A DNA stretch of 64,000 bases, from IMG/VR virus record IMGVR_UViG_3300045988_074608; one strand, written 5' to 3'. Shown piece after piece: positions 1-59,603 of the stretch; positions within the stretch are counted from its first letter, which is position 1, and each line of letters starts with the position of its first letter. Below the pieces are notes generated by a model that made no database searches, was not told where the DNA came from, and saw only the letters and a list, made by a program, of their open reading frames with translations. This DNA comes from a virus. A program made the position numbers and the translations under genes.

Positions 1-2550
1 ATTCATTTTATATATCTCGTCGATAACCATTCTAACAACAGGACTTTTTGCATCAGAAAATAAACCACAAATACGTTCAAAAGAATTCGTATCTCCAAAA
101 TCATATTGTGCAGATACCCATTTTTTAATATTTACAGTTAATCGTTTTTTCATGTCATCCGTAAGCTCTGAAGATTCTTGAGATTCAATCTTCTCTTTAA
201 TCCAAAAATCAAGCATGTGTTCTTGTGCAACACGTTTCATATTTTGAATATATGTAAGCTTTTTTCGTAAATCTAAATCTGAAATAAGACGGCTTATCTC
301 GTCTATAACAGGATTAGAACCAGGTTGTATTACAACCAGCATTCTTTCAATATTAGACAACAGATTATCATAGAAACCGCAAATATCTTTTGTTATATAT
401 TGAATCTCGTCAAAAGAAAAAGGCTGAGTTTGTTTAGTATTAGTAGCTGTAGCGGCAGTAATAGAATTACCATTTGTATCCTAATAAACTCTATTACCAA
501 AATTATCAATATTATAATAAACCATATCATAGTTATTATCTTTAGCATTGATAAGCATTGCTAATATATTATTGATATCTGTATCAGCACGCTCTACAAA
601 CTATAGTACACCTTCTGCAAAAGCAGTCATAACTTCATCAGCACTCTTAGATTCAATTGCTTCAGCTATGGTCTAATGTTGCATCTAAACTTCACGAACA
701 GCGTTCTGATTAAATGCAATCTGTTTTTCATCACCATATATAGAAGATGTCTCTGAGAATTTAGATTTGTATGATTTATCTTTACTTAACGTTGAATTTT
801 CTATACTTTCAAACAAATCCTATATTGTACGTTCTTCTTTAGTTCTGATTTTATTTATTGAAAATCTCTAATCTTTTGCAGCTCGTATCTTTCTTCTAGC
901 CTCTTTAAATCTATCTATATAAGATTGTTTATTAAACCATAACCTGTTAAATTGCCAATTATTGTCTATATTTTCTCCAAGTTCTAAACCAACTTGTTTA
1001 CTATATGAAGCCTATACAAAAATATCTACAAGTTCTTTATATGCTGTGTTGTCATATTGTATACCGATACTTTGTAAGTATCTACTTATGAGTCTAGATA
1101 TAAAACTCTTAATCTTATCCAACCATGTTTGTTTAGTATCATACTGAACCTGTTTTAATTTGTTTATAAATTCATCGTTACTAAGTTCAGCAACCATTTC
1201 ATAAACATTTTGTAAACCTTGTATAGATGGATCATTATTAAATTGTTCTTTGAGTTTAGATAGTAATTTTTCAGCTTTTGCGCGTAATATTTTAGATCTT
1301 TGCAACGCTTCAACAGTAATTACATGAATCATTTCATGGGTTAATGTCTACACTAATGCATTTTTAAAATTATTCTCATTACCGAATGATTTTGCGACAT
1401 TTATAATAATAGTTCTTGTATTAGAATCATATTTAGCAGAATAATTACCAGTACGATCAGCAACTCGTCTAATATTGACACTATTGAACAAACCTGGACT
1501 TGTTTTATTAATGTCTTTTAATATTGAGAGGATAAATGAGAAATTATGATTATCCTCACCTCTTGTTTGTTTTATAATGTATTGTAGAAGATCTTGGGCA
1601 GTGTTTAAAGATTTCTTATTTAAAAACCGATTTAAATTACCCATTGATTCATATTCTTTAGTTTTAATCTAAACTTCAAGTCTTGGATCTTTTTTACCAA
1701 TACGTACTCCTGCATATTTAACTCTTAATCCAGGATCCATATTTTCTATATACTATCTCCAAATATCTTCTTTAACTTTAGCCTTTAATGTAACTTCGAA
1801 TCTTGTTTCATATGTATCATGTACGAGATTATCTATTGCATATCCTTGGTCTTTAATGTACTTTACAGCACGTTCTCTACTATATAGATGACTATCTCTA
1901 TCTTCACCATGTCTTTTGTATATATTATCGTTTATTCTAGAGAATGTTCCTACATTGTCTGTAGCAGATTTAATTTGATTAGGATTAATAGTCAATAATT
2001 CATAATACCCAAAAGTCTTATGATAAACCATACCCCCATCATATTCTTTTGGAAGTTTATCATATTTATTTCCAGTTCCATAATCTGTTATATAAGCCCT
2101 TTCTTCTAAAGAAGGAGAATCTTTTCTAAATAGATTTTTTATATTAAGAAATAACGATATTTTATCATTAGATGTACCAAAATATGGGTTTTCTAGATAA
2201 TTCTATTCTTGAGTTTGTTTTTCAGATCTAAATAATATAGGTTCTCCATTTTCATCAAATACATCTTTATACTATTCTTGTATTTCAAATCCATCTTGAA
2301 ACCATTTACCGTATGTATCTGTGAAATCAGATGTGAAAAGCTGAGCTTTTTTCTACTCAGCTTTATTTACATCTCCTTTATAATACTCTAATAAATCATT
2401 ATAGAGTTTTGATGATTTTCCTTCTTTTGTTTTATCAAGAGTATAACCATTGTTACAACACAGAACAGCATAGGCTCTTTTATAAGAGCCTAATACTTCT
2501 GTTAAGTGATTTAATTCTTCTTCGTATTTACTTTTTATTAAACATACCAT
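1..2550 (-). CDS. Large virion-module protein, C-terminal part cut by the window edge (at least 850 codons, TAG read as sense)
   Basis: ATG at 2550 lies 6 nt downstream of the tandem TAA TAA (2557-2562) that ends the giant ORF. Track ORFs 2353..2550, 1753..2031, 1348..1644 and 1012..1332 share this frame. Every gap codon I checked down to position 1 is sense or TAG, never TAA or TGA. No family recognised. Confidence 0.7.
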
Positions 2551-2559
2551 AATAATTTA

Positions 2560-5500
2560 TTATTTACATTGTTCATCTATTTCATCTGCTAATGTATCAA
2601 GAGCTTCGTTTGTAGGATAATCTTTTAAAGATTTCTCAATAAATTCCTATCTAGCTTCCAGATTCTATTTCAACTATTCAACAGTAATACCAACAGATTC
2701 TGCTAACTTAGTAAGTACAGACTAATCATTAAATAATTTAAGCTAATTTTCATCTATAATGTGTTTTTCGCCATATAATGCTTTATTTATAGTACTTCCT
2801 ATTTCAGCATTACCGTCCTCCGTGGTCATCTTATACAAGAATTCCCCTAAATTATAACATTCGAATACGTTTGCAAAATCCTAGTTCTAACTATCTTTCT
2901 ACATGATAGCTGGTATTTTTTTCAAAAGATTAATTACGTTAAATACCGCTTTACTTTTAACAACCATTGATTTTTTAGACTTATCATAATATATTACATT
3001 TTTATCTATATCTTCATAAGACAAACCTTCATAATCATGAACAGCTTCTTTAAAATCATTTATTATTTCGGAAATAAACCCTTGCTTGAAATCAGAATAC
3101 TTGATATATTGAGTGGTTTTGTCAGAATCTTCGCCTAATACATCCTCAGTCACAAATGAACTAATATTCTACATTATTATTTTTAGATCTTTTACAGAGA
3201 CTCCTTTTATAGGTTTGCTATTATAGTAATAATACTTTTTATTTACAGATTTCTATTCTGTTTTCTATAATCCAGAATCTGTAAACCTGTTTTTCTTCAG
3301 TGTTCCATCTTCATTATAATAATTTAACATTTTATCACCATTATGGTGAGCATAACAATATACACAAGAAGATGCACAATTACTATTATATTTTAACAAA
3401 TCGGTTTTTCCACCATAACAAGAACACAACTATCTAAATCTATTATTCTCGGTTAGTTTATTAGGTATTTGTGTACCAAGCATTTTATTAATAGCATCTA
3501 CACTTAAACAACCTTCTATACTTATACCATCCATTCTACAAGGTTCTGCGCATGTTGACAAGTCTAAATTATATTTTTTAGCAATATTTAACATCTTTTC
3601 AGCTATACCTTTTATAACATCCATTCTGGCATGAGTAAAATAAAATCCGGAATCATTCTTATCGAAGTATTTAGAATAATCATATCCTAATTCTTCCATA
3701 AATTTAGAAGTGGTTTTATAATAATCTAACACTGAAAATCTTACATGTTTTACACCTAATTCACTAGCTCGTTTCATCAATTTATCCACTTCAGATATTT
3801 TAGTAACGCCTGGTATAATAGGATCTATTCGTAATGTAACATATTCTGGATCTAATCCTTGTTTTATAAAGTCACCTATTCTCTCAATCATGTCTTGCCA
3901 TTTCATAACACCAGGCTCCCATTTAGTATTGCCTAAAGTAGTAACGCTGAAATGAATTATTTTAGGTTTGTTTATCTATAACAATTCTCTCATTGGTAAA
4001 CCATCGTGTTTTGTTATCAAATATAATGCGTCTATATCCTCATATCGAATAGGGTTCTTACTATAATCTAAAAATGTATGATTTCCTTTAGCCCAATCTT
4101 GTATCATTTTTGAGAAGAATACTGGATCAGTGTGTTCTGACGCAACTGCAATTCTTGGTCTAGTATCATCTCCAGTAAACGGTTTTATAGCAAGTATTTC
4201 ATCATTAGTTAATATTGTCTTATCGGAATTCAACGTTTTAACTTGTTCCAAATAAGTTCCGAATCTATCCTCATCATTCGCATCTATACTATCCTGCGTA
4301 TCTATACTGTTATCTGGTTCAATAACATAACCTTCTTTTTCCTATAATCTAGTTCTTATTTTGGTTAATATATTTGCGAATCGTGATTCTCCTGTAGGTT
4401 CACCTTTTTCCATAATTTCATCAAGGATTTCTCCTTTTCGATTAATATGTGTGAATTTTACATTTCCTGTATTAATTAACAATTGTTTAGCTTCTTCATT
4501 TTCTACAAATGACTAATACATGAGAGCAGACAATATACTGTTACTAACTTTTCTCCAGATATTTAACCCTTCGCCAAGATTAACACTAGCACCTTTAGCT
4601 TTTGCTATTTTAGGATCTTGTTCTGTTATTATAGAATTAAATATTCTAATCTTATCATCAGTTGACAATGCAGTAGAATATAAAACCTTAATAGCCTAGA
4701 ATGCATTTTCAACAGTATTCGCGGAATGTTTTACAATAGATTTAATCTTATCAATATCTTTAATATATGATAATTCCTCTCCAGACAATACATTAAATAC
4801 ATCTGTTATATGACGTGTTGCAAAGTTAGACAACATTAGATTATCACCACGTTCATAATGTATATTTATAGAATCTTGTTTCTTATAAAGACCTTCGATG
4901 GCAGTTATAAATGCATTTGGAACTTTATTGTTATTAATCAGATCATCTTTTGTTATAAATCCAGACTGTCGTATTGCGTTTTCAATAGATCCTCTCTGTT
5001 TATTTACATAATCTATTACACTTTGTAATTGTGTATCAAATGTCTATTGAGCAGATTGTACAGTTGGAACAATTTTATTACCCTGCTTATCAAATTTGTC
5101 AAAATACGTCTTATCGTAATCGTCATCTATTTCACATGAATAGAATTGATATGTCTAAGAACCTATTTTCATACGTAAACCTTTTGGATTTACAATTTTA
5201 TATATAGGGTATTCGAGACTAGTTCCATATTGTGATATTGATCCGACTCCAACTAATTTATATAATAAAAATCTATCGTTATCTGCATATGTTGTACCAT
5301 TTCTAAATGTTTTTATAAACGGTGGGAATTGTCCATTTTTATTTTTAGATATAGGTGAAGAATATTTATTATTGTAATATGATAATCCTATTATTGTCCT
5401 AGGTTCTGTTCTTAATGTAACAGTACCATCATATCCTACCTATTTATATGTAAAATTAGATGTTATAAATCTACTATAACCTTTTTCAGTCTTTGTATTA

Positions 5501-8500
5501 GTAGTCGGTATTATATTATTATCTGATGCAAAGTTTAATAACAACTCGTCTATGTTTATGCTATAATCTCTATTGGATTCAAGATTACCTTTATAATAAT
5601 CAGAAGCTTCTTTTATATATTTACAATATCCAAAATCTTTTCTCCACTGTAATGGTACATATTTAAAGAACTTAACAAATCCTTTACTGTCTGCAGAAGA
5701 CATAAATGCATATATTGCCAAATCATTTGCAATACCTCGCATAGCTTCTTGTAGTTTAGGATTCTTATCGTTTGTATAATTAAGCATATCTTTCCAAGCT
5801 TCTATATAATCATTACTTACAGCTGAATCATCTTCTGAAGTATATGTCATAGAAATTATATCATAATGAGGTTTACCTTCTTCTGCAAAATAATGTACAG
5901 AATGTAGTTTTTCGATAAGTGGATTTATTATAGTTCCATTTTGAGTAAACTGTTTTAACTAACCAGACTCATCTGATCGTAACAATCTCTATAACATTGT
6001 TATACGTTTAGCTAACGTACGATTGCCAACAATTAGTTGCTTCCAATACGAATATATCGTATGATTTGTACCGTGTTTTTTGTTATATTTATCAACATAA
6101 TCCTAAAAAGCATAATTAAACGCTTTCTATTTTATGTAACACATCATCGCATTATTAACTGCTGTTCTAGTAGCTTTAGATTTATTATTCAATATACTTA
6201 AAATCTCATCTCGTTGTTGTTCAAATGATTTTTGCATATGAATCATCTAATCTCCCAAAACCATATGTATGAATTCTGTACCATAATAAGTTTTATCGTC
6301 AATATAAGAATCATTTAACATCTATTCAATATTACTATTAAATAATGTACTCTATTTAAGATTATTATATTTCGCTAAATACTACTGCTAATCTTGATAA
6401 TTTATACCTTGTTTCTTAGTATCAATTTTAGTATATTGTACAAGATCTGACAGACCCTGTGCATATTTCTCAAACTCTTTCGAAGCGATGTATATCATTT
6501 GTTGGATTTCAGATACTTTTATATTTTTATCGCGAATCTTAATAGTTTTATCTAAATCTAAACTTGAAACAGAATTTCCAGCTTTCTTATAATAATTTCT
6601 ATCCGTTGCGAGTATTTGTAAAATAGTCTTTTTTACTGTTTTACCATTTTCATTAACTTCTACTCTAAAACCATCATTGCGCATAGGGTCTCCAAATATA
6701 TCTACAATAGTAGACATTACATCATGTGCAAGCTAATCTTTATCAGATAGAGAACCATTTGCATATATTGCAGCAATACTTTTTGTACCAAAAGTCTTAT
6801 TTATATATTTTTTTTCAGCCTCTTCTTTTCTCTATTGTGGAGATAAACCTGGATTATCAACTATCTAACCATCGCATTCATTATAAATCTATGCTAAATC
6901 TCTAATCACAGGATTATTTAAGAAATAAAATGCATGTCTACCAAAACCTAATCTTATTAACAATGAACTTATATTATAAGTAGCTTTATTGATATTCATT
7001 CTCAAAACATAAGGATCTTTAGCAACATCTACGTGACCATTGATAAGTGCTGATATCCAAGATAATATAAATGATCCATCACAGTCAACACTTCTTGCTA
7101 AAGATAAAGCTCCTAAATTACTTAATATTCCACCATCTGATATAAATCCAACATCATATAATTGTGTCAAGATATGGTTATTATTGTTCAAAGCGTAAGG
7201 TCCGATACCAGTTTTACCTGTTGCGAAAGAACCTCTTGTTTCTACCTAAGTACTAAGCATTTCAAATTGATATGGTTCGTATGGTTTTGCAACAACTCCA
7301 CTCTCAAGTTCTTTCAATACATTTTTAACAAGAGATGTATCCTAGTCAATAGATCTTCTTAAAAGATGTGCATATCTTCCACCTTGTAATTCACCATTTT
7401 TATCAAGTGTTCCACAATCCTTTAATAGTGATATATATGTACGTAAAAGATCATTAGTTAACTATTTCTTCTTATCGGAAAGATTTTCAGAAGTTGCTGT
7501 ATAACGGGATTTTCTTCTAATCTGACCTTCTTTATCAATAAAATCAACATCGTGTTTTACAAGTTCGTAGAATAATGTAGACATGTATAATTTATCAATA
7601 TCGAAGTCAGAACCTGTTTGAGCTGTAAATTCTTTAGGTAAGACAATAGTATCTCTAACAATAGGTAATACATCTACAAATCGTAAAGCTCCAATTGAAG
7701 ATGTAGCCTGTGTAGGAATACGATATGACATAGTATTGGCTTCAGCATTATGCCACTCAGTTTCTCCAGTTTTTACACCAGATATTATATCATTATCGAT
7801 CAGCCATTGTTTAGCCTTTTTAAAGTTATTCTACAATCCTTTTGGAATGATATCCATAAAATAGTCTATAGATACTACAGCATCCATTGAACCTTCTTCA
7901 TTGATCATACGTAAAGGTTTTCCACCGTTCAGTTTACTTTCAATATTTTCAGAACTAATAACCTTATACGGACTATCCATTCCAAAAACAGTTCTCTGAT
8001 AAAATGCATTACCTTTAGTACGAATATCGATGACATCAGTTCCTACTTTAGATGACAATATACTTTCAACCCAAGCCATATTTGAAACGCTGTTCAAATC
8101 TACATTAAAACCATCTCCGGCTTCATTTAATTCTAAAGCTTCTAATATATTTTCATCAGCATTTCTATCTCGTAACTACTGTACTAAAAATTGTTGTAGA
8201 TTTTTAAAGTTTACAGTACCGTCCTAGTTTGTAAATTTATTTTTCAGTTCATCCCAACTAAGTTTAGCAATCTCACGCATCGTGGACATTATCTTATCAC
8301 GAACCTCGTTTGCGGACATTTCTTTTACTGTACCATCTGATTGACGTATATTATAAGTATCACCATCACGTAATGTACCCATACAAACCTTTAAAACCTG
8401 TGTACCTGCAGCCATTATTTCATCTACACGTGGATCTGTGTTCAACTGTCTACGAATCCATTTATATTTCTATGTATAAATATGACCTGCGAAAGAAAAT

Positions 8501-11500
8501 TTATTTATATCTTCAGCAGACATGTCTGGGTCAAACCTCTAAGCTCCTTGAGAGCCTGCTTTTACAGCAGACTACATCATACACATATCAACTCCATTTT
8601 TAGGATCGTTCATCTTATCATAAAGATGTTTTAAGAATCCGTATGATATACCTTTGAATATTGGGAACAATGCAAACTTATTATAAAAATGGACAGGTGT
8701 TCCATTTTGCATTCTATAACCAAAAGCAGAATATTTCTAAGTAGATATAAGAGCATTGTGTACAATTTCATAAGCTTTTGCATCTGATAAATAACTATTA
8801 TTTTTACCACGTAATATATCAAAAGCCTCTTTAACATTTTCTGTAAATGCACCGCGTTGTTTCAACAAGTTTTCAGCCATCTTGTCGGTTATGAAAGCAG
8901 TACCATCAGTAACATTAACACCTTCCAAATGTTTAGAATCATCGTATACATAACTATTTGTTTCGGATTGAACTTTCTTATCGATGATTTCCAAAATACC
9001 AGCTTCTTTTAACAACTCTTTCTGTTTTTCAACATCCATGTTGTTTACAATCTTGTATATTTCAGCTTTTTCAGCTTTGGATATATCTCGACCTTCGTAT
9101 TCTTGTTTACTTAATAGTATGTTAACACAAGCTTCTCTATATTCACCTCTTTGGAATACTGTTTTTAAAGAATTTACCATTTCACTGGTAATCTACCAGT
9201 CATTTATTTCCGCAATTCTATATTCACTAGGTATTCCAGGTATATCTTCTCTATTGTTAGATCCAGTAGAACCAACACCTCCATAACGTTTAGTTTCATC
9301 AACACCAAATGTTACAAGCTATCCTTTATCATTGTAATTAGTCTTGAAGAATTGTGGCATTCCTGTTACAAATCTTCTACCCTCTTCCATAGACATTAAC
9401 TGTTTGCACATTGTGTCAAATACATAAGCTACTATAGCCTAACCTTCTATTTCTGCTTCACTCTTTAATGAATTATAACGCCTCTCTGTATTACCTATTC
9501 TAGAATTTCTATATGCGTTGGCAATAAGTGCTATTTTATTAACATCTAAGTAGTTATTTTTGTAGTTGAAATATTTAGCATTTTCAGCAGCACTTGACGT
9601 ATTTGTCTATACTTCTATAATACCAAGATCTACAAGATGTTTTAACTCGTCGTCTAATCTATGTCTCAATATATCAGCCACTATTTTTCGTTTTTCCTCA
9701 ATAGGTCGACTAAAATATTTTTCAACTGCTTTATTATAAGATTCGAGTATTCCGTTAGTTGGTGTACGATGTTTTTTTGCATCATCTGTAGATACATCAT
9801 CTTGAAAATTGAATGATATGAAATTATCACCTTCATAAATACCTGCCAATGATGTAAACCTTGCTCCGTTTTTACTACCTGTATGATAGTTTTTAATCAT
9901 TTGTTCGGCAGGAAGTTTATCTTGCTCGCCATTTGGACCATAACCTAATTCACGAATAGTTTTCTCAACATTCCTACGTTCGCATTCGAAATACTCTATA
10001 AATTGATCTAATACATCGTTTTGTTGATATCCTTTGCTTAAATCCTCTAAGTTAAAGAATATCTAACCTGTAAAATGATTAAACATAGGCAGTTTTCCAA
10101 ATGCTGATATCTAATCATCAGTCATTTGACTACTTACTTTAATATTATAGTCAAATCCTGGTAATTTAAATCCTCGTACAGACATGTATGTAGATTTATC
10201 AGACAATGTTGGCATTATTATAAGACCATCAGATAGTTTCTACATTCTTGATATTTGATCTTCACGTTTTCCCATTTCTGAGAATTTAACGCTATCCGAA
10301 CTATACTTAGATCCAGCATCGGTATCAATAGATATTTCGTCTTTTACTTCTTTATTTAATAACTGCTTAGCTATAACAGATCCTCTTTTCTAACCGTCTT
10401 CATCTTCAAATACAACATACTCGACATCTTTCATATCATCCAAAATAGAACCTTTTCTAATCGAACCATCTGATTCAAAAGAAGTGTTCAAATCATCTAC
10501 AACATCTGATACTGTATTGTTTTGAGCATACATATACATTTTAGTATTTCCAGCACCCAATGTCATCATTTCTGATGTTGCCATTTTATATTCAGATGTT
10601 GCTTCTGCAAGCATTGTTATAAATTGATTTTTAGCATATAAGAACGCTCCTGAATATTTACCGTCTTTATTAGAATCTCTTGTAAATACATTTAAATCAC
10701 CTGATTTTACAGCATTATTTAATTTGTCAAGAACTCCGTCTTTTGATATAAGTGCATATATACTAACACCTCCACTTTTACTACTTGTCATCATTTCACG
10801 TAATGATTCTATATAATCAGTACTGTCTGGATTTAATTTGTGCAGTAAATGATAAAATGCAGGTTTTGTAATCATTACACCTATAGAATTAAATGCGTTA
10901 ATTATATTACTAACAATGAAATCAAAATTAGCAACATCATTTATATCATATATTTTACCATTTATATCAATCTTAGTACTATCTCCAATTAAACCTTTTC
11001 TTATTTGATTCAATGTTGTAGCACAATCTGCAAATGTCGTATAATTTCTGTTTATATTGTCATCTTTATTATATAATCCGGTCAAACCAGACCTTACATA
11101 ATCAAACCATGCGATTGGATATTGTCTAGAACTCTAATTAGTATTTGTCTATCTATATCTATATTCGTATCCTTTTTTATTACCTTCTGATTCATTTATA
11201 AACAAGAAGTTAAAGTTAAGTTTTTGTGATTTAATACTCTAAAACAATAACGTAGTAAGTGTCTAATTGTTCTGATTCTATGCGTAAGTAGCACCTTGTA
11301 ATATATCACCTGCTTTACATATAACTTTTCCGTTTTTACCAACAAGGTCTTTAACAAGACGTACTTCAGTAGGATACATAGCTTGTTCACTTCTATCTTC
11401 TGTATTACTTATATAATACTCTGGTTTTACAATAGCTCCATGATAATATACTTTTGGAAAACCTGCATATTTTTCATATTGTTTTTCTGTAAAACGTAGA

Positions 11501-14500
11501 TAAGATTGATAACGTAATCTATACAAAGATTGGGCTATTCTTTCGAACATGTAATCGTTTTCTCCAAGTCTCCTTAATTGATTATATAAATCAGATACAT
11601 TTTTAACATCGTGTAATTCTGATAACAATCTCTGATGTACTGATTTGAAAGATAAAAATACAGGTCTACCCATAGAGTTTACTGTCTAAGGTATTGTTGC
11701 ACGTTTTGGCTTACCATTTTCTTTGACAACTTTTCCATCTTTATCTAAAACGTACATACTTTTAACTACACCAGATGCTACATCTTCTTGTGTTACATAT
11801 CTAAGATTAGGTATAGTACTCAACATCCATTGTATAGGAGCTGCAACATCATCAGACATAGAATGAGAATAGAATTCGTCTGCGTGTCCTTGAATATCAT
11901 CAGAAACAGCACTTGTTATATCACTATCAAGATCTTCTTTTCTTTGCGCGTCTCTGTCTTTTCTTTTGCGAATACCCATCTATTGCAATTTAGATTCCAA
12001 TAATGGTTGAGCTATCTACCAATTCTAGAATAATTCACGTATAATTAATGCATTATCTCGTGTCAATGCAGGTAATTTACCATCTTGTACAAGTTTATCA
12101 AGTTGTTCTTTTGTAGCAGAACCTCCTGTAATCTAAACATACCATTTAGCAAATGGTGAATCTTTTGCTAAAAGTGTCTATCTATCAAATTTAAGCTTTT
12201 CTATATTATTACCGAGAATATCAATACCTTGTTTTTGAACAATTACTGGTAATAATGTTTCAACAACTTCATTTAATTGTTTCTAAGTATATATGTATTG
12301 TAATTGATGATCTTTACCTTCATTGTCCTATATTGTCATGTTAAGACCTTTTGGGAACAATCTGTTAAAACGTTCCATATTTTCTTTCGAAGCTTTACGA
12401 GAAGAGAATTTACCGTGATCTATTGCTCTAAACGTACATGCCATCTTAAGATTACGTGTTCTTATAAAAGCGTTCAATGTATTATACAACCAAGCAAACA
12501 TTCTTAATATTTTATTTTTAGGTTGCCAGTTGTATTTAGAATATGCATAGAACATATCAGCAAGACCTTCAGCAATCTACTCTTCTGATAAATCTTTATT
12601 TTTACGCTTTTTCTTATACCAATTATAAAGAACGTTTCTTTCTTCTTCACTCATTAACATTTCAACAACGTAGTGAAATGATTCATGATATTGTGCATTA
12701 TTTTCAGCTTCGTACGATAATTTAATAGCGGCACTCATACAACGTCCAACAACATCACCATGCTATGTTTTTTCTATAATATCTTTTACTGGAAGTATTT
12801 TAACACTGTCTCCGCATATTCTACGCACATCTTCTGTCGCTTTTTTCAGCCCTTCTTCATCTTTTATAGGATGTTTAGCTTTTTCACGTTGTACCATATT
12901 CCAACCGTCATCACCAAACATATCATCTTGAGCAGATAACATATCATCAATAGATACATCTTGACCATCTATGTCATCTAATACAGTTTCATCAGATTGA
13001 GGTGTTTCAGGTTGCGTGTTTATCCAATCATCGATTGCAGTTTGCATTTGGGCAGATTGTTCTATAATTGCACTAGGTGTTGTATCATCTACAGAAATAG
13101 CTTCAAAATCAGATGTACTTACCAAAGCATCGGTTATTCCAGAATATTCTGACTAGAACCAATTATTTTTAATCATCCACGCAATACCACTTATGTTATT
13201 TTCAACATCGTCTCTTGTTATTACGAATTCATCTGAATATCTGATAGATTGTACATTTGGGTTTTTATCAAACCATTCTTTAACACCATTAAACAATCTA
13301 CTAACCTTTGAATTTTTAAAGTTATCACGTATTAATAATGTATTCTGCACATTCAAATATCCATTTGTTGACAATTCCTGACGAAGTTTTTGCAAATCCT
13401 GATCATTTTTAAGATTATATATTGTTTTAGTGTTACCTCCATCGTAACTCATATATACTTTATTACGATCAAGATTACCATCTTCATCTTTTACATAATC
13501 AAATTGGAATTTACTGTCTGTTGCGACAGCTCCACCTCCGAATCTTATAAGATAATGTAACAATTTAGAATTATCTATAGGACCTTGTATTTGATTGCCA
13601 TCTTGGTCAATTACATTAGCTTTTGATTGTTTCTTTCCTGATATATTTGTTAGAATATCAACAATAAGATCTGCTGCAGATTGTGACATTTTACCAGGTG
13701 TCAATGCTATTAATGCTGTATGAGGTACAGCACCCTGTTCAGAATCTTCAGCGTAATCCAATGGTTTCTGAATATATACAATACCTGGTCTTGACAAATT
13801 CTCATCATTTACAGCTTCTCGTTGAGATGTTCCAGATCCAACCTTATAATCATCACTATCTAATCGTCTTAAAGTACCCTATGAATCCGATATCAATAAC
13901 ATTGGTTCCCCGTTTTTATAATCTAACAAACCATTTATCTAATCGTCTGTTAAATCCAAACGTTCTTTTACATTGCCAGGTTTATTATTATACTGATATT
14001 TACCATTTGTCCTACTAAGTCCTTTTAATACAACTTTTATTTTTCCAGATTTTATATCATCTTTATTCTTTTGATAAAAATCTATAAGTTTATTTCTAAA
14101 ATCTTGTTCAACTGCGTATATAAAAGATATTTCTGCAGTAGCTTCTTTTGAAAGAATTTGTCCATTATATGATATTTCTTTAAATTTCAAATATGCACCA
14201 CATGTAGCAGCAGTATCTGAAAATTTTGAAGCTTCAAAATCTATTACAAATTGTACATTTTTAATAAAATCTTTTTTAGTAGTCCAATCTTTAAATACTT
14301 GTAATGCTTTCCTTTGTGCAGGAGTTATTTGACTTCTATCTTTAGCAAGTCTGTTATAATGTTTTACATATTTATTATTATATACTCTAGGATTTGGATG
14401 AAATTTACCTTGACCAGGACCATTACCTTTGTTAGTTTTATCTGCTAAATGTTGTTCTACAATTGTTTTAAATCTTGTCAAAATATTTTTTTCTCCTTCT

Positions 14501-17500
14501 ACCCATTCTAAAGCTTGTTTAAGAACAGATAATGTATTATATCGATCGATATTTTGTTCGAATTTAGTTACAGCATCGATGTGTGCATTATATTGTTGAC
14601 TAATTGTTGCATCTTTAACATTCTACATTAATGTATCAAGAGCATCTAATTGATGTTTTAATTGTGCAAAACTTAGTTTTACATTTTCTCTAGCTTCATC
14701 TATTTGCTGTTGTATATCATGTAATTGTTCAACATATGTAGTATGTACATATTTAGGGTCCTATATTGCCAAATCGACCATTTGTATAGGTTGTACGTCA
14801 GTTATAGCAAGCAATTCACTCCAGTTATCACGTGGACTTTTAGTAGTTACGGTAATACCCATTAATTGTAAATTACAAACGCTACTACCAGTACATTCCT
14901 AAATCATTTGTGCATATGCATTTAACTAATTTGTATATACTTCTCTAGCAGTGTGTTGTTGACGTCTTCCGAATGCTGAGGTTTTACCATAATCCTTATC
15001 AAGAGCCTCTCTTTTCTTTTCTGTCTAAATATTTCCTCCAACAGTACCACTAACTATTACATCTTGTAATTCAAATGAGTATTTAGATGTTTTAAAATCT
15101 ATAAGAGTTATATTACCATCTGGCGCTATTGCTAAAAGGTCAGGTTCACCAGCTATTTTAACTTTAGTTCCATCTGGATTAGTTTTTTCATAATATAAAC
15201 AAGTTGGTCTTGTATATAAAACATAACCCAAAGTCTCCATTTTATCCTTGAATTTCTTAAGATCATCTACGAGTTTATCAAAAACTTCTTCAGGAATTCT
15301 TTGATCCACATCTTCATAATTCAAGGTTTTACCTGCTAATATATCACGAGCTATTCCATCTATTATAGAACCAGATATTACAGAAGCACCAGGTAAGAAT
15401 AAATTTGTATCCGTATGTGCAAATAATTTAGCGATAGAATTTATAGTTTCATCGCTCTTTAATATATCGTCAGTTTGAAAATAACCCTCAGGATTTATCT
15501 TACATCTCTCTGCTAATTCTGAATCAGTACCATATAAACGAACAGCTGTATTATAATAATCATCAGCCATTTGATTTATGGCTTTTATGTATTCATTTTT
15601 GTAACCTTCTATAACATTTGTACTATCATTCCTCTTAATAGAATCTAACCATGCATCTCTTAGTTTTTGTAATGTATTGGTATTTTTCTTTATAGCATCT
15701 TCCTATTCTTTTGTATTACGGAACTGAGGTTCCATCATACTATGAAGACGACTATACATTTCAATCCTACCATTTGTTTCAATGAAATAGTTATTTCCTG
15801 TACGCCATTCGTAATGATATTTACTATTAGACGCAGAATATTCATCTAATACTTTTATAGTTTTAGATTGATCTTGTGTTATTACAACATTACCATATTT
15901 TATATTAGTTTCTGGCGCAACATACGGAGTTTTAGGCTGTTGTGCAGGTTGCACAGGTTGTACTATAGGTTTTGCAGGAGTTGGATTTAATAACTTCTTA
16001 TAATACCTTGCATAATTATACTCACTTATTGTTATTTCCTAATCATTTAAGAAATATTTAAACTTACCATTTTTCTATTTTCTTTTTTCTAATTTTGCAC
16101 CGTTATTTAACAAATTGACGATTCGCATTTCTTTAGTACGATAACCATCATCACTTATAGCTCCAAGATTAGTTACTAACTAATCAAATTTCTTTTGATT
16201 ATATTTTCTGCTATTTGCATAATCCGCTAATCTCTAAATAGAACCTTTATAATCAGATGTTAAACCAGGAGCCTTAGCTGCAGCACTTTCATAAGATTCT
16301 CTATCCATCCATTCTTTTTGAAAATCTTCGAAAAGCTTCATACTAGAACTTCTATAATTATCAAGTCTATTACGTTCTTCGTCAGTAAGTTTATCAAGTT
16401 CAGAATCGTTTAATGCTACATAATCATCGTATTGATCTTTTGTCTTTTTCAAACTTTTACCACGATCATCATATTCATTTCTAGAATCAAACCATTCTGC
16501 CTTATCAAACTATTTGTTAGTTTTGATTAATTTATCATTTTCAGAATCATACTCATAAACTCTACGTATACCATCTATGTCATCACGTACAACATATGTC
16601 TTACCATTTCTAGTATACGTATTATTATCATCGGTTATTACTGCAGAATCTAATTTCTGTCTATCTAACTCGTCGTTATAGAAATCATCTTCAACACTCT
16701 GACGTAACAATTCATCTTCTTTTTTATTTTTCAAATATGCTTCAACAGAACTCTTAGCAAATTTTGGATCTTTTACTAATTTGTTAAGCATTTCATTATT
16801 GAATTGTAACTGTATCGAAGCATCAGAAAGATCGCGTTCTGCTGCAACATAATCATCGTCTATATGGAATCCTTTGCTTTCTGCAAACTTTTTCACATCT
16901 TCTTCGGTGTCTAATGCAATGTTATCACCATATACCTCGTGAATACGATCTTTGGTTTTTTGGACGTCATAATCAACTTTAGCTTTTACAGATTTTCCAC
17001 CTTTCAACTCTTTGATTTTTTGCATATCATTCAACAATTGTTGAGTCTACATTTTACCAATAAGTTGATGTATTGTTATAAGATTACTATTATTTGCTTC
17101 ATAAGCACGCTGTAAATCATCAAACATGTTTACAAACTTAGCATCATCTTTATATTTATCTGCAAGTTTATATCTACCGTCTTCCCCTTTTTCTATTTTA
17201 AACTGTAACTAATTTATTCTAGGATCACTTGCTCTATTTGCATCTAAGTAATCTTCAAATGACTATGTTACATTTAAACCGATAAGATTATTTAATTTTT
17301 CTTTATAAAATTGATCAGCTTCTGCAATAGAATTTTGTCTACCTGCTAATACTGCAATGTATGTATCAAAGTTTTTCTACATCACAGAACGTTCATTTGT
17401 CTTCTTTATAGAAAGATTATCTTTTATTTTCTATTTCCATGATTTATTTTCATCTTTCTCTAAAAATCCAGCACTTGTTGCGGTTTTACGTACATCTTCA

Positions 17501-20394
17501 TTTTGTTGTAATATTCCGACTGTATTTACAAGTTTTCTAAGGTTAGCAACATGATCCGACGGTATTCCATAACTAATATTATCTTTATTACGCTCTTTCA
17601 TATCAGATGTGATACCTTCGTACTAATCTAACATCGCTTTAATTTTAGAATAATTACCTTTACGTAATTCTTTAGCAAATATAGACGCTTTCGCAAGATA
17701 ATCTTTATCTGAAATATCGTCAGCTAATAAATTATTTAATATAAGATGATCGAGTTTAAACTGTTGATATGTATTAGCTGCACCTCGTACAGCTATATTA
17801 GGACCACCTTGTATCAAAGCTCCTAAAATACCACCATGCATTTGTTCCCATATATCACGTTCTTGTGCTGTAGCTTGTTCAGGATCTTTAAATAGAAAAC
17901 TAGACCATAATTTAGCACCATCCAATACGGTCATAGGAAGCTGATTTAAAACATTATAATAAGCATTAGACATCTCTTCTACACGCTCATATTGTTGTTG
18001 TTGCTGTAAACCTTCTTCAGCACCTTCGGAATACATACTTGCTCCAGCTCTCCATCCGAAATCTTTAGCAACCTTACCAGCAGTACCTAAATATCTTCTA
18101 TATCGTAATACTCTTTCTGGTATAGCAGTAGCCATATCTATAACATTTGCAGAATGCTGCAATGATTTTTCTGCCATTTTTGCTAAAGCTTTGTCTATTT
18201 TACCTTGTGCAAAATTTCCTACTTTTTGCATCAAGACAGGTATTCCAGATTCTTCTATAAGATCTTTTGTAATACCTCTTACAAAATTAGCAGGTGCATT
18301 TAAAGTTGTTCTAATACCATTTACAGCATTTGTAACAGCTGCATCTCCACCTTCTGATAATAATTGTTGAACTGCCTTTCTAAGCGATGTTTTACTACCA
18401 TCTGCATATTTGCGTAAAGCCATTTTAAACGCTAACCTGTCTCCTTTTGCAGCTAATTTATCAGTTAGAAATCCAACCTTAGAATTTTTCGCAATACCTC
18501 CCATAGGCATACAAGACACAATAGCATCTGTTAAAGAATCAAGAGTATTAACACCCATTCCTTGATAATATTGTTTTGCAGAACCTGCGGTAGCATCTAA
18601 TAAAGTCTGTCTTATTTTAAAATCATTTGGAACATATTTACCGATATAGAAAGCATGTAATATATCATCAACAGTAGCACCTTCTCCAAGCTCTTTTCTA
18701 CCTTCGTTTACAAATTTATCAAATTGATCATTTTCAATAAGAAGTTTTTTAGCTAATACATCTGTAGCATCTGATACGTTTGCAAAGTTCTCATCTGCTC
18801 CAGCAGCCATAGAAGATGCAAAAGAAACAGCTCCAGATGCAAGTGCTATAGAAGCACCTGCAGTTTCAGGTGCTAATATTGAACCGAGTAAAGCTGTAGC
18901 ACCGGCTCCCATTGAAATTAAAGTTTTCTCTGGAGAAGACATTGATGAAGCGAGAAGACTTGGTGCCATCCACATTTTTGCAGGATTATACCATGCTAAT
19001 GAATTAGCAGCAGCTTCTCGTTTTCTATAATAATTCGAAACTTCATATCCTTTTTGATATTTCTCCAAATCTTTTTTATCAATCTCATAATCATTTCGCC
19101 ACAAAGCTTTCATTTGTTCAGCTCTACTATTGAATTGTTTATATATATTATCCAACTATGTACGAGCTTGTTTTGCTGCAGCAACATCTCCTTTCTCAAG
19201 AGCCGCTTTATACTTTGTGATATTTGCACCAAATCCATGTAGTTTTGAACCAACGCCAGTTCCGAAATCCAAATATCCAATATCGTGTAACAAAGACTGT
19301 GCATCAGAAACTAAATCTCCAGCCCACGTATGATTTTCAAAAGATATTAAATCTTTAAATACGTTTTCTTGTTTTTCTTTCTTTTGTTGGAGTTGATTTA
19401 TTTTTTCTTTAAGATTGTCCCAATTAAGACTCTCTTCCTTACTGATACCTTTTCCGCTAACATAACGATTTCTAATATCTTCAAACTATGCCTAAGTATT
19501 TTTAAGTTCAGTTACAGTTTTTTGATATTCATCTAATGCTTCTGGATTTACCATGTTTTGTTGCTACATTAATGTATTCATTTTACCAAGACTTGTAGCC
19601 ATCTAGGTTTCGTTTTTAGAAATACCAAAAACATGATATGCATCTTGCAACAAAGAATTTTTTCTATTTTTATCGATATTATCTGCAATTTTTTTACCAC
19701 TCCATAATAAAAAAGGAGCTGCTATCGGATTCTAAATACTTTGTAATACAGCATTAGCTATAGGTAACATGCTATCATAATAACCTTTTGGAGCTGTATC
19801 ACCATCGTCCTATTTAAAATCCTCTGGATGCATTGTTTGATACCAACGTACTGTTTTATCAATTTCGTAATCCAATGCTTTTGCCTAACTTCTCAATTGA
19901 GCAGCTGCTTTAGGATTAGATTTTTCAATACTTGTAGCTGCGTCATTATAAGAATCTCTATCTTCCATAAGTCTTCGTACTCTACTTCTGGAAGCTCTTT
20001 TATCTAAATTTTTATTTTGTTCCCGTTGTCTATTTTCAGCATCTCTCTGTTCTTTTGTGAACACTTTTCTTCCAGGAAAAGACCATTTATATTTAGATAG
20101 ATTCGGATTTTGTGGTATCAGAGAAGTAAAATCGGTATTATTATTTTGCTGATTGTTATTCTGCCGATTATTATCCTACTAATCATTTGTATCTGATGAC
20201 AATTCTTTATTTTTACGATCAGCATCTCTTTTCAAACGTTCGTTTAATTGTCTCTCAGCTTCTTCATCTTCTCTCTGTTTTCTTAAAATATCCTATCTTT
20301 TTCGCTCTTCTGATTTTCTCAGACGCTCCATATATTTCGCACGTTCGTCATCACGAACTCGGTACGAACCTCTTATTAAGCTATTTATATCCAT
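2560..20394 (-). CDS. Giant virion protein (about 5,944 codons) containing the crAss-type virion RNA polymerase motif plus nuclease-like and DUF1848-like domains; TAG read as sense
   Basis: ATG at 20394 lies 2 nt after the TAA (20397-20399) of the upstream gene, and the nearest upstream in-frame stop is TAA at 20434-20436. All 23 track ORFs from 17623..19155 down to 2899..3153 are in this one frame. My codon-by-codon check of every gap found only TAG (about 95 by hand count) and no TAA or TGA until the tandem TAA TAA at 2557-2562. Confidence 0.75.
3340..4155 (-). other. DUF1848-like (putative Fe-S, TIM-barrel-like) domain inside the giant ORF
   Basis: The translation runs from IAVASEHTDPVFF to LRIDPIIPG to CAEPCRMDGISIEGC to RFR(TAG)LCSCYGGKTDLLKYNSNCASSCVYCYAHHN. 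This matches my recollection of the DUF1848 layout (N-terminal S-x-R/H-T-D-P-x-F-Y/F, C-terminal CxC...C...CxYCYA cysteine cluster). It is a motif-level call only. Confidence 0.45.
7594..7608 (-). other. DxDxD (DFDID) putative catalytic metal-binding motif of the crAss-type virion RNA polymerase
   Basis: Track ORF 7462..7731 reads ...TAQTGSDFDIDKLYMSTLF. The five codons GAC TTC GAT ATT GAT map to 7608..7594. A DxDxD loop in a very large virion protein is the signature described for crAss-like virion RNAPs. Confidence 0.55.
14914..15141 (-). other. PD-(D/E)xK (RecB/Cas4-like) nuclease motif set inside the giant ORF
   Basis: GEPDLLAIAPDGNITLIDFKTSK supplies D...DxK (D codon 15139-15141, K codon 15091-15093). 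It is followed by REVYTN(TAG)LNAYAQMI. If the TAG at 14926-14928 is read as Gln, this gives the family QxxxY motif exactly (Q-L-N-A-Y). Confidence 0.5.
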
Positions 20395-20396
20395 AA

Positions 20397-22160
20397 TTAA
20401 TATATCATTGATGCCGACCCCTTGTCGGTTGTTTTAATATGATAACTATCTCTCAGATTAGCTTCTTGATAATCTATATTAGGTGCATAAGCTCCACTTG
20501 TAACATATGTATTACGGTCAGCCTTACCGTCTTTAGCTGCAATAGATGTATAATTAAACGGCATATAAACTGTACCAACGTTCACAGCTCTATTGTTTTC
20601 ATCTCTTACATACAATGTTCCCACTGTAGCTTGTACAACTTGTCCATTTCGTTTAACAGTTGTTGCAACATTATTACCTGTTCTAGGTACAAATACAAGG
20701 TGTCTATTAGCTCCAAGAACTCTATCAGACTTACCATGTTCATTCAATTTTCTACTTATATCTCTATGTAATGGAATATGTCTTTGCATTATATGATGTG
20801 AACCACTTGTTTCTGCTGCCCATCTATCACCATCTATTAATCTAGACGCCTCTTGTTTACTAATAGTAAATCCATCTACTATTGAAGTTTTAATAACATC
20901 TTTATCACTACTTTTTCCTACTTTTGCCACCACATTTAATTTATATTTTCCAGCATCTCCAGCTTTTCTTTGATGTCCAAATCGTTTATAAGTAACTTCA
21001 AACGGTTCACCGTGTGTGATTGTAGCACCTTGTACTTTTGCAGAATATATTTTCGATTGTTTACTATCTTTTATTGTTTTTCCAGTATATGGTATTTTAC
21101 TAACGGTTTTCTCTAATACTTTTTTAGCTTCTGATGTAGCTTCTGCGAATGGTAATAATAAACCATTAGCTTTGTATTCATCGATATTTAATCCAATCAA
21201 AGCACCCAAACCTCTTAATAATTGCGTCTAATGATAATTGAGATTAATATCTTGTTTTTCTTTTGCAGCAGCTTTCTAACTTTCATATTGTTGTGCTTGC
21301 TTTTGTTTAGCCATATCATGCTGGAATCTTATATTTTCAAGAGCATATTCATTAACCTTCTTCTCTTCTCTAAGATAATCACTGTTTCTATTTACAATAT
21401 CATCTGTAAGATACTGCATGGCTAATTTATCAATATCTGCTTCAGAAGCTTGCGGGTTCACAGCTCTTACTTTATCTTTAGCTTGCGAATAATAATATTT
21501 ACCGTAATCACTACTTAAGAAATCATTAATATTACTTTTAAGCACGCCACGTATATCATTTTCGTCAACTGTGTAATAATCATAACCGTCTTTTTTCTAA
21601 TTGGTTAATTTCTCATTGAACTTTTTATCAAGATGTTTAAACCAATCATCTGTTAGATCATGCAAATTTTTATATTCTATAGGCGATACTCTATCAAACA
21701 AACCATTTTTTAATGTATCCCAATCTTTAAATTTATGTTTCTGAAAGAAATCTTCCATCTACTAACTGTATAAACCCTTAGACTGTAACTGTGCCATTGC
21801 TTGAAGATAAGCTTGTCCTGTTTTCGATGATTGTATAATTTGATTTATTTTATCTCTAGGTGTAGTTCTTATAACTTTAGCTATCATGGCACGACCCTCT
21901 GCTGTTCGCAGAGGATCTATACCCATTGCTTCCATGTTATCTATCGCATCATTTAATCTACCATATGTTAACTTATCATAATTTTCAACATCTTGTTGAA
22001 AAGGAGATGTAAAATCACTGTATTTAGACAGATATTCATCCATTCTTTTTTCTCCAGATTCATACTGATCTTTTACAGCATTTAAATAAGCATTCATAAT
22101 ACCAGTATCATATAGCTCTGGGATAGGCATATCTACTGGCTAATCATATCTATATATCAT
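20397..22160 (-). CDS. Virion/cargo-module protein (587 aa), unknown function
   Basis: Track ORFs 21762..22130, 21276..21545 and 20397..21209 share a frame and are separated only by TAG. ATG at 22160 follows the in-frame TAA at 22173-22175. The stop is TAA at 20397-20399. Confidence 0.65.
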
Positions 22161-46450: not shown

Positions 46451-46478
46451 AAATTATTTATTATTTGATTAATTGTTA

Positions 46479-57780: not shown

Positions 57781-57920
57781 ATATGCTTTTTTTATTATTT
57801 TTAATAGCGCAGTATTTACGAATCGAACGTAAATCTCTGTATTCATTCCATACAGCGAAATTCCATTATTCCAATACCGCTGGTAGCCCCACTAGGATTC
57901 GAACCCAGACTAAAAGGGTT

Positions 57921-58907: not shown

Positions 58908-59009
58908 AGAGCCTTCTGTGCTAACCGTTACACCATAGGGCAATATGAGGCATTTTAACGTCGGAGCCTCTCGACGGTTTATACAATGAAAGTTTTCAAT
59001 AGCTTATTG

Positions 59010-59058: not shown

Positions 59059-59065
59059 GTTATTG

Positions 59066-59395: not shown

Positions 59396-59398
59396 AAT

Positions 59399-59539: not shown

Positions 59540-59603
59540 TATTATTTGATGTACAATCTATTCGTCTTCATTTAAATTTAAACTTACTTGTTTGCATACA
59601 GTA

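Follow-up and report, generated by a model that had tools for sequence, protein, structure and literature searches.

Positions 2560 to 20394 of a viral DNA of 64,000 nucleotides (IMG/VR record IMGVR_UViG_3300045988_074608; the whole stretch analysed is called the window) had been described as one uninterrupted reading frame rich in TAG codons. This raises the question of whether the interval encodes a single giant protein, and whether such a protein is cleaved or partly terminated at TAG. With a probability of roughly 85%, the interval is a single late gene in a crAss-like gut phage, translated with genetic code 15 into a 678-kDa multidomain cargo protein that would act by the mechanism described below. 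The predicted order from the N to the C terminus is a helix-rich part with a hydrophobic patch, a nuclease, a zincin-like domain, a linker, an RNA polymerase, NADAR, DUF1848 and a Cys-Lys tail.

An open frame read through TAG

On the minus strand, a single frame extends over 2560-20433 for 5,957 codons, with 96 TAG (about 95 in the original prediction) and neither TAA nor TGA inside. Between 20436 and 2557 (5,960 codons) there are three TAA, one upstream at 20434-20436 and the tandem pair at 2562-2557, and no TGA; this codon count confirms the uninterrupted frame of about 5,944 codons that had been placed between these stops. The earliest ATG, at 20394, gives a product of 5,944 residues. In the remaining five frames, each with 270-890 stops over the same span, TAA and TGA together amount to about 5% per codon, and because of this frequency the open run cannot be due to chance, as had been argued. 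The ORFs of the interval had also been said to share one frame, and this holds for all 13 standard-code minus-strand ORFs of at least 100 aa. The interval has 111 promoter-like sites where 112 would be expected, and its one same-strand terminator is weak; by these counts, it has no internal transcription units.

Sequence comparison shows that TAG is glutamine in this gene. It encodes the Gln of the nuclease QxxxY motif, in an alignment column that is also Gln in standard-code relatives, and lies within conserved cores at aa 3975 and aa 4383. An independent 95-kb IMG/VR contig carries the giant gene at 96.7% identity over 13.7 kb, and at 12 of the 17 positions where only one of the two genes has TAG, the other has CAG or CAA. 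Opposite TAG, standard-code relatives have Gln in 23.5% of cases, compared with a background of 4.2% and with 32% opposite CAA/CAG. In crAss-like phages, this decoding has been demonstrated by metaproteomics (PMC9523058). The window also follows the published pattern for code-15 gut phages, in which late and structural genes contain TAG and early ones have little of it: its late/structural genes use TAG as a sense codon, while TAG is absent or rare in its early/replication genes (60-64 kb). Unlike those phages, it has no suppressor tRNA(CTA) detectable with ARAGORN or Rfam in its 64 kb, which are about two thirds of a genome of ~95 kb. The sole ARAGORN call in the window, tRNA-Ile(aat), lacks Rfam support.

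In the 96.7%-identical contig the start codon and N terminus are the same and the frame is open, with only three gap columns, all in-frame; the frame is therefore no accident of sequencing or assembly. Compared with this contig, dN/dS is 0.06-0.16 in each 400-aa bin across aa 1-5200, so the gene is under purifying selection along this length.

Organisation of the giant protein

The coordinates of the gene and its parts are collected in Table 1.

Table 1. Features of the giant gene in window coordinates, all on the minus strand
Feature	Residues	Position	Remarks
Whole gene	1-5944	2560..20394 (-)	ATG 20394-20392 to TAA 2562-2560, second TAA 2559-2557; 96 TAG as Gln
Charged, low-complexity, helix-prone N-terminal region	1-470	18985..20394 (-)	Conserved in L036-L038; dN/dS about 0.07-0.12
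Gly/Ala/Ser-rich, moderately hydrophobic segments	474-533	18796..18975 (-)	Kyte-Doolittle maxima 1.3-1.45
Conserved, mainly helical region	534-1500	15895..18795 (-)	Matches close relatives only
PD-(D/E)xK nuclease, RecB/Cas4 style	1640-1880	14755..15477 (-)	Homologous to crAss001 gp47 aa ~1583-1882
TAG codon for invariant Gln (nuclease QxxxY motif)	1823	14926..14928 (-)	Q in 20/20 aligned sequences
Zincin-like (gluzincin) metalloprotease motif region	2500-2700	12295..12897 (-)	Homologous to crAss001 gp47 aa ~2099-2301
Charged linker	2805-2850	11845..11982 (-)	Low-complexity; inferred gp47-like/gp50-RNAP-like junction
Virion RNA polymerase module	3040-4954	5533..11277 (-)	Collinear with cr130_1 gp79 aa 3038-4853
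DFDID catalytic motif	4263-4267	7594..7608 (-)	Invariant alignment columns in 18 sequences
NADAR (DUF1768)	5160-5360	4315..4917 (-)	Putative hydrolase of ADP-ribosylated nucleic-acid bases
Strain-variable C-terminal cassette	5361-5919	2638..4314 (-)	Breakpoints from blastn: window 4312, 2638
DUF1848	5445-5682	3349..4062 (-)	Pfam PF08902 E=1.8e-23, 84 bits vs 30.5 cut-off
Conserved C-terminal tail ...DYPTNEALDTLADEIDEQCK	5919-5944	2563..2640 (-)	Cys5943 penultimate, ends Cys-Lys

The N-terminal 1,500 residues have no fold assigned by Pfam, PHROG, tblastn or an AlphaFold model of aa 414-923, which is unusable (pLDDT 37.7). For aa 1-470, no match was found in Pfam, in PHROG or with tblastn in the phage collection. 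The Gly/Ala-rich hydrophobic segments that had been noted at 18800-19000 are found at aa 474-533, the one place in the N-terminal third with such hydropathy. They align with cr130_1 gp79 aa 386-495 and are directly followed by a GADENFANV motif that is invariant in four homologues; this patch is possibly membrane-active at ejection.

The nuclease had been recognised correctly. Its motif lies at aa 1749-1768, and the residues G1749, D1752, D1766, K1768, Q1823 and Y1827 are invariant in 20 sequences. The region matches crAss001 gp47 (blastp E=1.6e-10), and the best PDB matches of its profile are all nucleases, at weak scores (E 0.05-0.2). The zincin motif consists of YHESFH at aa 2569-2574 and E2609; across 34 sequences, conservation of H2570, E2571, H2574 and E2609 is 97%, and none of the four varies in alignment A3. 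This region has no match in the PDB or Pfam; a zincin-like domain is suggested by the conservation of its motif and by published descriptions of its orthologues as zincin-like proteases. The earlier reading had overlooked this HExxH...E motif (aa 2570-2609), as well as the NADAR domain (aa ~5160-5360), and the former bears directly on the question of processing. The N-terminal part, the nuclease and the zincin-like domain correspond to crAss001 gp47, and the zincin-like domain links the chain to phi14:2 gp65. The junction with the polymerase half was placed in the linker from blastp offsets to crAss001 gp47 and gp50.

The polymerase module matches cr130_1 gp79 (blastp E=0, 30.6% identity) and, with tblastn, 47 crAss-like records. 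Its two-barrel core, aa ~3800-4520, matches the solved structure of Cellulophaga phage phi14:2 gp66 (PDB 6VR4_A, E=3.7e-45) in two stretches, gp66 964-1506 and 1539-1673, which span the barrel region and the bridge helix/trigger loop; this bears out the original prediction of a TAG-recoded giant virion-RNAP fusion of crAss-like type. The DFDID motif was rightly identified, and alignment columns G462, D464, F465, D466, D468 and K469 are invariant.

Since public phage records already hold such genes, some of them larger, the giant gene adds a further example to a known kind. In its major capsid protein the phage shares 85% identity with cr272_1, and it is probably a member of the Crassvirales, Suoliviridae/Oafivirinae-like. 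Collinear single CDSs in RefSeq Suoliviridae are cr130_1 gp79 (YP_010113266; 5,801 aa, 75 TAG), cr272_1 gp23 (YP_010113476; 6,386 aa) and cr113_1 gp38 (4,328 aa), so nearly 6,000 residues is not the extreme end that it had been taken for. The window protein resembles the giant transcription-block proteins of the delta-group crAss-like phages (Suoliviridae): it is a single TAG-recoded CDS, comes after three virion/cargo genes and before another giant gene (in the relatives examined, one of ~1,400-2,300 aa), and has collinear homology in the hydrophobic patch, zincin region, polymerase and NADAR. It differs from them in that polymerase identity is only ~31-34%, and the first 1,500 residues have little or no similarity.

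Proposed role as virion cargo, and the questions of termination and cleavage

The polymerase of phi14:2, gp66, resides in the virion and transcribes early genes; its activity needs every Asp of DFDID. It is a separate protein of 2,180 residues, with neighbours gp65 (zincin-like) and gp67, whereas in the window the polymerase occupies aa ~3000-5000 of the chain. In both, a zincin-bearing partner accompanies the polymerase, adjoining in phi14:2 and fused in the window, where the chain adds the gp65-like part and extra enzymes. In Bacteroides phage crAss001, the counterparts of the nuclease and zincin regions (gp47) and of the polymerase core (gp50) have both been detected in virions by mass spectrometry (PMC10172136). 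They are two standard-code genes on opposite strands, without a NADAR or DUF1848 tail, so fusion is dispensable for function, which is still compatible with cleavage of the fused form. The giant protein also resembles polyvalent proteins from phages and conjugative elements (Iyer et al. 2017), such as the zincin-bearing N4 virion RNAP: a very large, presumably injected chain unites numerous unrelated enzymatic domains, a zincin-like peptidase forms the hub, and effector domains are rapidly reshuffled. The N4 polymerase, however, is T7-like, while that of the window is of the two-barrel crAss/QDE-1 type, and crAssphage, NADAR and DUF1848 go unmentioned by Iyer et al.

By analogy with phi14:2 and crAss001, the gene would be expressed late, when TAG is readable, and copies of the protein would be packaged into the capsid. 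At infection, the chains would be extruded through the tail, partly unfolded, before or alongside the DNA, and the polymerase module would transcribe early genes without need of host RNAP. The nuclease, NADAR and DUF1848 would be delivered at the same time, with nucleic acids or host defences as probable targets. The zincin-like domain may split the chain into functional pieces or activate the polymerase.

It is very improbable that some of the 96 TAG codons, or all of them, still act as stops and that the interval yields short separate genes or a series of truncated products. The standard code does break the interval into many ORFs, a suppressor tRNA was not detected in the window, and in the published code-switch model TAG probably terminates early in infection. 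Against this, the fragments all lie in one frame, most lack starts and whole domains, and TAG stands within catalytic motifs and conserved cores and is exchanged with CAG/CAA in the close relative. Standard-code IMG/VR relatives make the same proteins as ORFs of 4,000-4,700 aa with no TAG at all, and since the first TAG is codon 34, termination there would leave a useless peptide as the sole product. The earlier suggestion of products partly terminated at TAG thus finds no support. Less probable still is an artefact, whether from chimeric assembly of the metagenome or from a pseudogene in decay. Chimeras of the region do exist, since a public contig of 1.25 kb (P0004) joins 112 aa of the giant protein to a bacterial M23 peptidase. 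The independent contig with the same start and open frame, the uniform purifying selection, the collinearity with RefSeq genomes with the same neighbours, and a run of 5,957 codons without TAA or TGA all speak against an artefact.

The chance that the giant chain is merely a precursor, cut into a gp47-like protein, an RNA polymerase and free C-terminal enzymes, is put somewhat below even. The cutter would be its own zincin-like domain or a head-maturation protease, acting before packaging, within the capsid or after injection. Strict conservation of HExxH...E between nuclease and polymerase in 34 homologues favours such processing, as do the charged low-complexity linker where the gp47-like and gp50-like homologies meet, which might conceivably be a cleavage site, and the existence of the two halves as separate crAss001 proteins. 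A "single huge polyprotein" that includes a zincin-like protease is already mentioned in the literature on crAss phages, and cleavage has been hypothesized for these polyproteins and for zincin domains of polyvalent proteins. However, the N4 virion RNAP is packaged unprocessed despite its zincin-like domain, the protease might instead act on targets in the host or on peptidoglycan, and no conserved cleavage motif was identified in the giant protein.

The C-terminal cassette and tail

The NADAR region scores 24.4 bits in Pfam, under the cut-off of 35.1 that its relatives exceed; it matches phrog_1017 (E=9.4e-12), and a profile of the segment with eight relatives matches PDB 2B3W (YbiA, E=1.4e-12) and 8BAU (NADAR, 1.2e-7). 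The DUF1848-like Cys-cluster domain of the original prediction is above its Pfam cut-off, and its C-terminal cluster comprises C5615, C5619, C5629, C5657, C5659, C5673, C5677 and C5680. Modelling of a homologue with 59% identity gives DUF1848 an alpha/beta barrel-like fold (pLDDT 80-98). The most confident Foldseek matches in the PDB are spore photoproduct lyase (probability 1.00; TM 0.29/0.40), a weak likeness because a generic TIM-barrel match has the lowest E-value.

Each relative has its own set of C-terminal modules: the window has NADAR and DUF1848, while cr130_1 has SLOG-like, NADAR and DUF7831 modules, and cr272_1 has NADAR, DUF7831, DUF1848 and DprA-like modules. In the 96.7%-identical contig, the cassette is replaced by an unrelated module of ~220 aa with a DprA/SLOG-like sequence motif and no Pfam match, and the tail behind it is 99% identical in nucleotides despite this exchange. 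A post-polymerase tail that serves as a swappable enzyme cassette, with DUF1848 here and a DprA/SLOG-like module in a near-identical relative, may be new. The same may be true of the near-terminal Cys: 27 of 29 RNAP-bearing giants have Cys in the last six residues, compared with 0.25% Cys overall, and crAss001 gp47 and gp50 also have one.

Reading frame and the meaning of TAG

The giant gene runs on the minus strand as the single open frame that the original prediction described. From the TAA at 20434-20436 to the tandem TAA TAA at 2562-2557, TAA and TGA are absent, and the in-frame TAG codons number 96, close to the 95 or so first estimated. The other five frames over the same span contain 270-890 stops each. 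Since TAA and TGA together occur there at about 5% per codon, a run of 5,957 codons with neither is far beyond chance. The first ATG, at 20394, lies two bases past the upstream gene's stop codon and opens a product of 5,944 aa and 678 kDa. Standard-code gene calling shreds such genes badly, cutting the giant gene into at least 13 pieces; the minus strand of the interval has 13 standard-code ORFs of 100 aa or more, and every one of them lies in the giant frame. A sigma-70 and terminator scan, a poor model for Bacteroidota promoters, shows no excess of promoter-like or terminator-like sites within the gene. The contig IMGVR_UViG_3300045988_062669 (loci L006 and L036, the close relative below) shares 96.7% identity with gene nt 2401-16083, begins at the same start codon with the same N-terminus, and has a 5,610-aa ORF with 83 TAG. 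Between the two genes, dN/dS is 0.06-0.16 in every 400-aa bin of aa 1-5200, the domain-less N-terminal quarter included.

Nearly all other minus-strand genes from 20.4 to 57 kb are likewise open only with TAG as a sense codon, and the neighbouring late genes also carry in-frame TAG and keep TAA and TGA as stops. In the plus-strand genes at 61-64 kb, TAG is almost absent. Both GC and AT skew reverse near 60 kb (at about 59000-61000), where the genes switch from the minus to the plus strand and TAG ceases to be used; this point is probably the boundary between a late recoded block and an early/replication block. TAG is common to the giant gene and its close relative at 61 aligned codons; at 17 more, TAG in one genome is aligned with a different codon in the other, which is CAG or CAA in 12. 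In standard-code relatives, 23.5% of TAG-aligned residues are Gln, against a background of 4.2% (5.6-fold) and against 32% for the CAA/CAG columns. The codon for Gln1823 (window 14926-14928, minus strand) is itself TAG. This residue is the Q of the nuclease QxxxY and is invariant in 20 of 20 aligned homologues, standard-code relatives among them. The alignments show that TAG in the giant gene is read as glutamine, and it accounts for 30% of the Gln codons there. TAG-to-Gln recoding has been described in the delta group (Yutin et al. 2021), and metaproteomics has shown TAG to be Gln in crAss-like phages (PMC9523058).

No suppressor tRNA with anticodon CTA is found in the 64-kb window, which is about two thirds of the genome, or in the partial loci of the relatives; recoded crAss-like phages that lack a detectable one have already been reported. 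ARAGORN reports a tRNA-Ile with an unusual anticodon (AAT) at 57807-57880 (minus), inside ORF 57247-57966, which adjoins an HNH endonuclease gene (57978-58895). This call is probably false, since the Rfam tRNA model has zero matches over the window. A TAG-free stretch of 511 codons, at aa 414-923, is only marginally unusual (permutation P=0.036).

Relatives and domain order

Collinear TAG-recoded single CDSs are present in RefSeq: cr130_1 gp79 (17,406 nt, 5,801 aa, 75 TAG) and the homologous cr272_1 gp23 (19,161 nt, 6,386 aa) and cr113_1 gp38 (4,328 aa). These Suoliviridae CDSs are preceded by three virion/cargo genes and followed by a second giant of about 1,400-2,300 aa, an order that the window matches exactly. 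In seven recoded IMG/VR relatives, the frame stays open for more than 4,600-5,800 codons and continues past the locus ends, and some twenty environmental relatives have standard-code ORFs of 3,100-4,700 aa, most above 4,000, with zero TAG. A crAss transcription block of large multidomain proteins, some with a PDDEXK domain, was reported by Yutin et al. 2021. Giant virion-RNAP polyproteins with TAG recoding are already on record for crAss-like phages, and the window gene is a further, divergent example. The core of the original interpretation stands, but the protein is not at the extreme end in size, since cr272_1 gp23 is larger.

Features of the giant protein (aa positions; window positions on the minus strand)
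Feature	aa	Window	Details
N-terminal region	1-470		charged, low-complexity
Gly/Ala-rich patch	474-533		moderately hydrophobic
Following region	534-1500		conservation limited to close relatives
PD-(D/E)xK nuclease	1640-1880		D1752, D1766, K1768, Q1823, Y1827 invariant in 20 sequences
Zincin-like motif	2500-2700		YHESFH + E2609
gp47-like/gp50-like junction	near 2805-2850		charged linker
Virion RNA polymerase	~3040-4954		profile match to phi14:2 gp66
DFDID motif	4263-4267		invariant in 18-sequence alignment
NADAR (PF08719)	~5160-5360		below cut-off in Pfam alone, 24.4 vs 35.1 bits
DUF1848 (PF08902)	5445-5682		Pfam E=1.8e-23, 84.1 bits vs 30.5 cut-off, profile 39-262/262
Cys cluster of DUF1848	5615-5680		eight Cys
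C-terminal tail	5919-5944	2563-2640	...DEQCK

The hydrophobic patch, the nuclease, the polymerase motif and the Cys-cluster domain named in the original prediction are all present (see table). The N-terminal 1,500 aa have no match in phage tblastn and no hit in Pfam or PHROG, and a model of the TAG-free segment aa 414-923 from a 4-sequence alignment is unusable (pLDDT 37.7). In a public 386-aa protein (P0004), 112 residues with 96% identity to aa ~646-757 are fused to a bacterial M23 peptidase; this architecture was set aside, since its source, a 1,251-bp ENA contig, is most probably a short chimeric assembly. The nuclease, whose catalytic residues are invariant, contains the D...(D/E)xK triad with a RecB/Cas4-style QxxxY, and the top matches of its profile in the PDB are all nucleases, though weak (E 0.05-0.2). 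Farther along the chain, H2570, E2571, H2574 and E2609 are invariant in A3, the alignment that holds the HExxH...E region, and are 97% conserved among 34 homologues. This arrangement, an HExxH with a downstream Glu as third zinc ligand, is the signature of a putative gluzincin protease of zincin fold (three-stranded sheet with active-site helices); the profile of the region has no match in the PDB, and Pfam scans of 17 members return no peptidase family. In nine environmental standard-code loci (L019, L020, L023-L028 and L030), one ORF of 3,100-4,700 aa holds both the zincin region and the polymerase, and the PD-(D/E)xK nuclease is in a downstream gene, whereas the giant gene has it upstream of the zincin in the same chain. 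Domain order across Crassvirales is variable.

The polymerase module has the DFD(I/V)D pattern of phi14:2 gp66-type polymerases. A profile of its core (A1, aa 3800-4520 with 17 standard-code relatives) matches 6VR4_A in the PDB, the solved structure of the phi14:2 gp66 virion RNAP, with E=3.7e-45, DFDID falling on DFDID, and the matched stretches cover phi14:2 gp66 964-1506 and 1539-1673. The bridge helix of gp66 is placed in the literature at 1529-1559 and its trigger loop at 1598-1636; the homology spans the double-psi barrel and the bridge-helix/trigger-loop regions. Profiles are needed to reach PDB structures, as a single-sequence phmmer search of aa 2901-5944 against the PDB gives no match.

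With tblastn, the DFDID region matches only crAss-like phages, at about 34% identity at best, and the best matches are cr124_1, cr130_1, cr131_1 and cr272_1, all Suoliviridae/Oafivirinae. These matches, together with a capsid protein 85% identical to that of cr272_1, place the phage in a Suoliviridae/Oafivirinae-like family. Its polymerase is about 31-34% identical to that of any deposited phage. Megablast of the whole giant gene against 50,697 phage records returns nothing, and relatives surface only in protein-level searches. The transcription proteins of this phage have diverged very fast, in line with the literature.

In L012 (9037-9992), L013 and cr131_1 (L004, 16925-17720), an insert splits the polymerase gene right within the codons for DFDID, after GSDFD. 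It is about 0.9 kb long and consists of a 219-aa ORF, which has a LAGLIDADG-like motif, between two halves that resemble a group I intron (43 and 31 bits, under the Rfam cut-off); the giant gene of the window lacks it. The major capsid protein gene of the window (44654-46453, minus) is split by a group I intron (RF00028, 108 bits, 45223-45452). Its exons, 45443-46453 and 44654-45166, correspond to positions 1-334 and 335-492 of phrog_11589 (major-head-protein), and this split gene sits on a local GC peak (44-46 kb).

Proposed working and the question of cleavage

The counterpart of the nuclease and zincin regions is crAss001 gp47, and that of the polymerase is gp50; crAss001 encodes them as two genes on opposite strands, whereas in the window they form one chain. 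Both gp47 and gp50 have been detected in virions by mass spectrometry (PMC10172136). Presence in the virion and transcription of early genes are established for phi14:2 gp66 and crAss001 gp50, and by homology the same would be expected of the window protein. Injected polyvalent proteins built round a zincin-like peptidase, the N4 virion RNAP included, were described by Iyer et al. 2017; the domain make-up of the window protein fits such a polyvalent protein, and we infer that it is delivered with the DNA. The scheme that follows starts from the observed frame, code 15, selection, domain identities and virion-cargo homology, and its steps are modelled on phi14:2, crAss001 and N4. The giant gene would be expressed late, once TAG can be decoded, and several copies of the protein would be packaged in the capsid. 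At infection, the protein would be extruded through the tail, partly unfolded; the DFDID module would then transcribe the early genes without host RNAP, and the nuclease, NADAR and DUF1848 activities would be delivered at the same time.

Whether so long a chain, of about 680 kDa, stays whole is a real question, already posed in the literature. The zincin-like domain may cut it: the conserved HExxH...E motif, the charged linker at the gp47-like/gp50-like junction and the split two-gene arrangement in crAss001 all favour cleavage. The N4 virion RNAP, which has a comparable zincin-like domain and is packaged uncut, argues against taking it for granted. We put cleavage at slightly short of even odds.

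The C-terminal cassette and the terminal cysteine

Beyond the polymerase, the chain carries two recognizable domains. A profile of the NADAR segment with 8 relatives matches 2B3W (1.4e-12) and 8BAU (1.2e-7) in the PDB, which assigns it to the family. According to the literature, NADAR enzymes undo DarT-type ADP-ribosylation of DNA bases, and phages deploy orphan NADARs against DarTG1, so that a counter-defence role is plausible. The DUF1848 domain scores above the Pfam gathering threshold, and a model of a 59%-identical homologue has pLDDT 80-98 over the domain. Since a fold search with this model gives weak matches only (spore photoproduct lyase, TM 0.29/0.40, and generic TIM barrels), no enzymatic function is claimed for it.

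The tail modules of the relatives occur in differing combinations of NADAR, DUF1848, cpYpsA-type SLOG, DprA/SLOG-like, SF1 helicase, DUF7831 and RNase H. Identity between the window and its close relative ends at aa 5361, with sharp breakpoints (window 2638-4312 vs L006 13693-14356). The 559 aa that bear DUF1848 in the window are replaced in the close relative by an unrelated module of about 220 aa, with a DprA/SLOG-like motif and no Pfam hit; past the swapped module, 99% identity is regained over the final 26 codons and into the beginning of the gene that follows. The DUF1848 region of the window matches that of L011, another relative, with a phmmer E of 5e-118 although their polymerase cores are merely 44% identical, which points to module exchange; its best database homologues are 53-66% identical. 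By these comparisons, the post-polymerase tail is a shuffled cassette.

C-terminal tails are otherwise unalignable between groups of giants, but a Cys lies within the last 4 residues in 25 of 29 RNAP-bearing giants, recoded and standard-code, and within the last 6 in 27, a count over kin sequences (the window and the giant ORFs of L001-L035 and L039) that is not to be read as a probability. Cys makes up just 0.25% of residues in these giants, and a control window contains no Cys. Near-terminal Cys residues are also present in crAss001 gp47 (at -3) and gp50 (at -9), and the pattern is absent from the adjacent cargo genes and from the genes downstream. A literature search for a terminal cysteine in crassvirus cargo proteins found nothing relevant. 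As a tentative reading, to which we give a probability of roughly 0.3, the post-polymerase part would be a fast-swapping, co-injected cassette of counter-defence or DNA-care enzymes, and the conserved Cys-ending tail would be a handle for packaging or ejection. The swappable tail and the terminal Cys may be worth more than the length of the ORF. The window and its close relative form a natural pair in which the C-terminal module, DUF1848 in one and DprA/SLOG-like in the other, is almost the sole difference, and which is suited to asking if such modules are injected anti-defence tools.

The next giant gene begins with an ATG two codons past the tandem TAA TAA, in the same frame (window 2545-2562, minus), so that the double stop alone parts the two products; some other crAss-like phages reportedly have both fused. 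Near the start of this next gene, the close relative has about 2.9 kb of extra sequence (L006 14765-17655 vs window 2229-1985).
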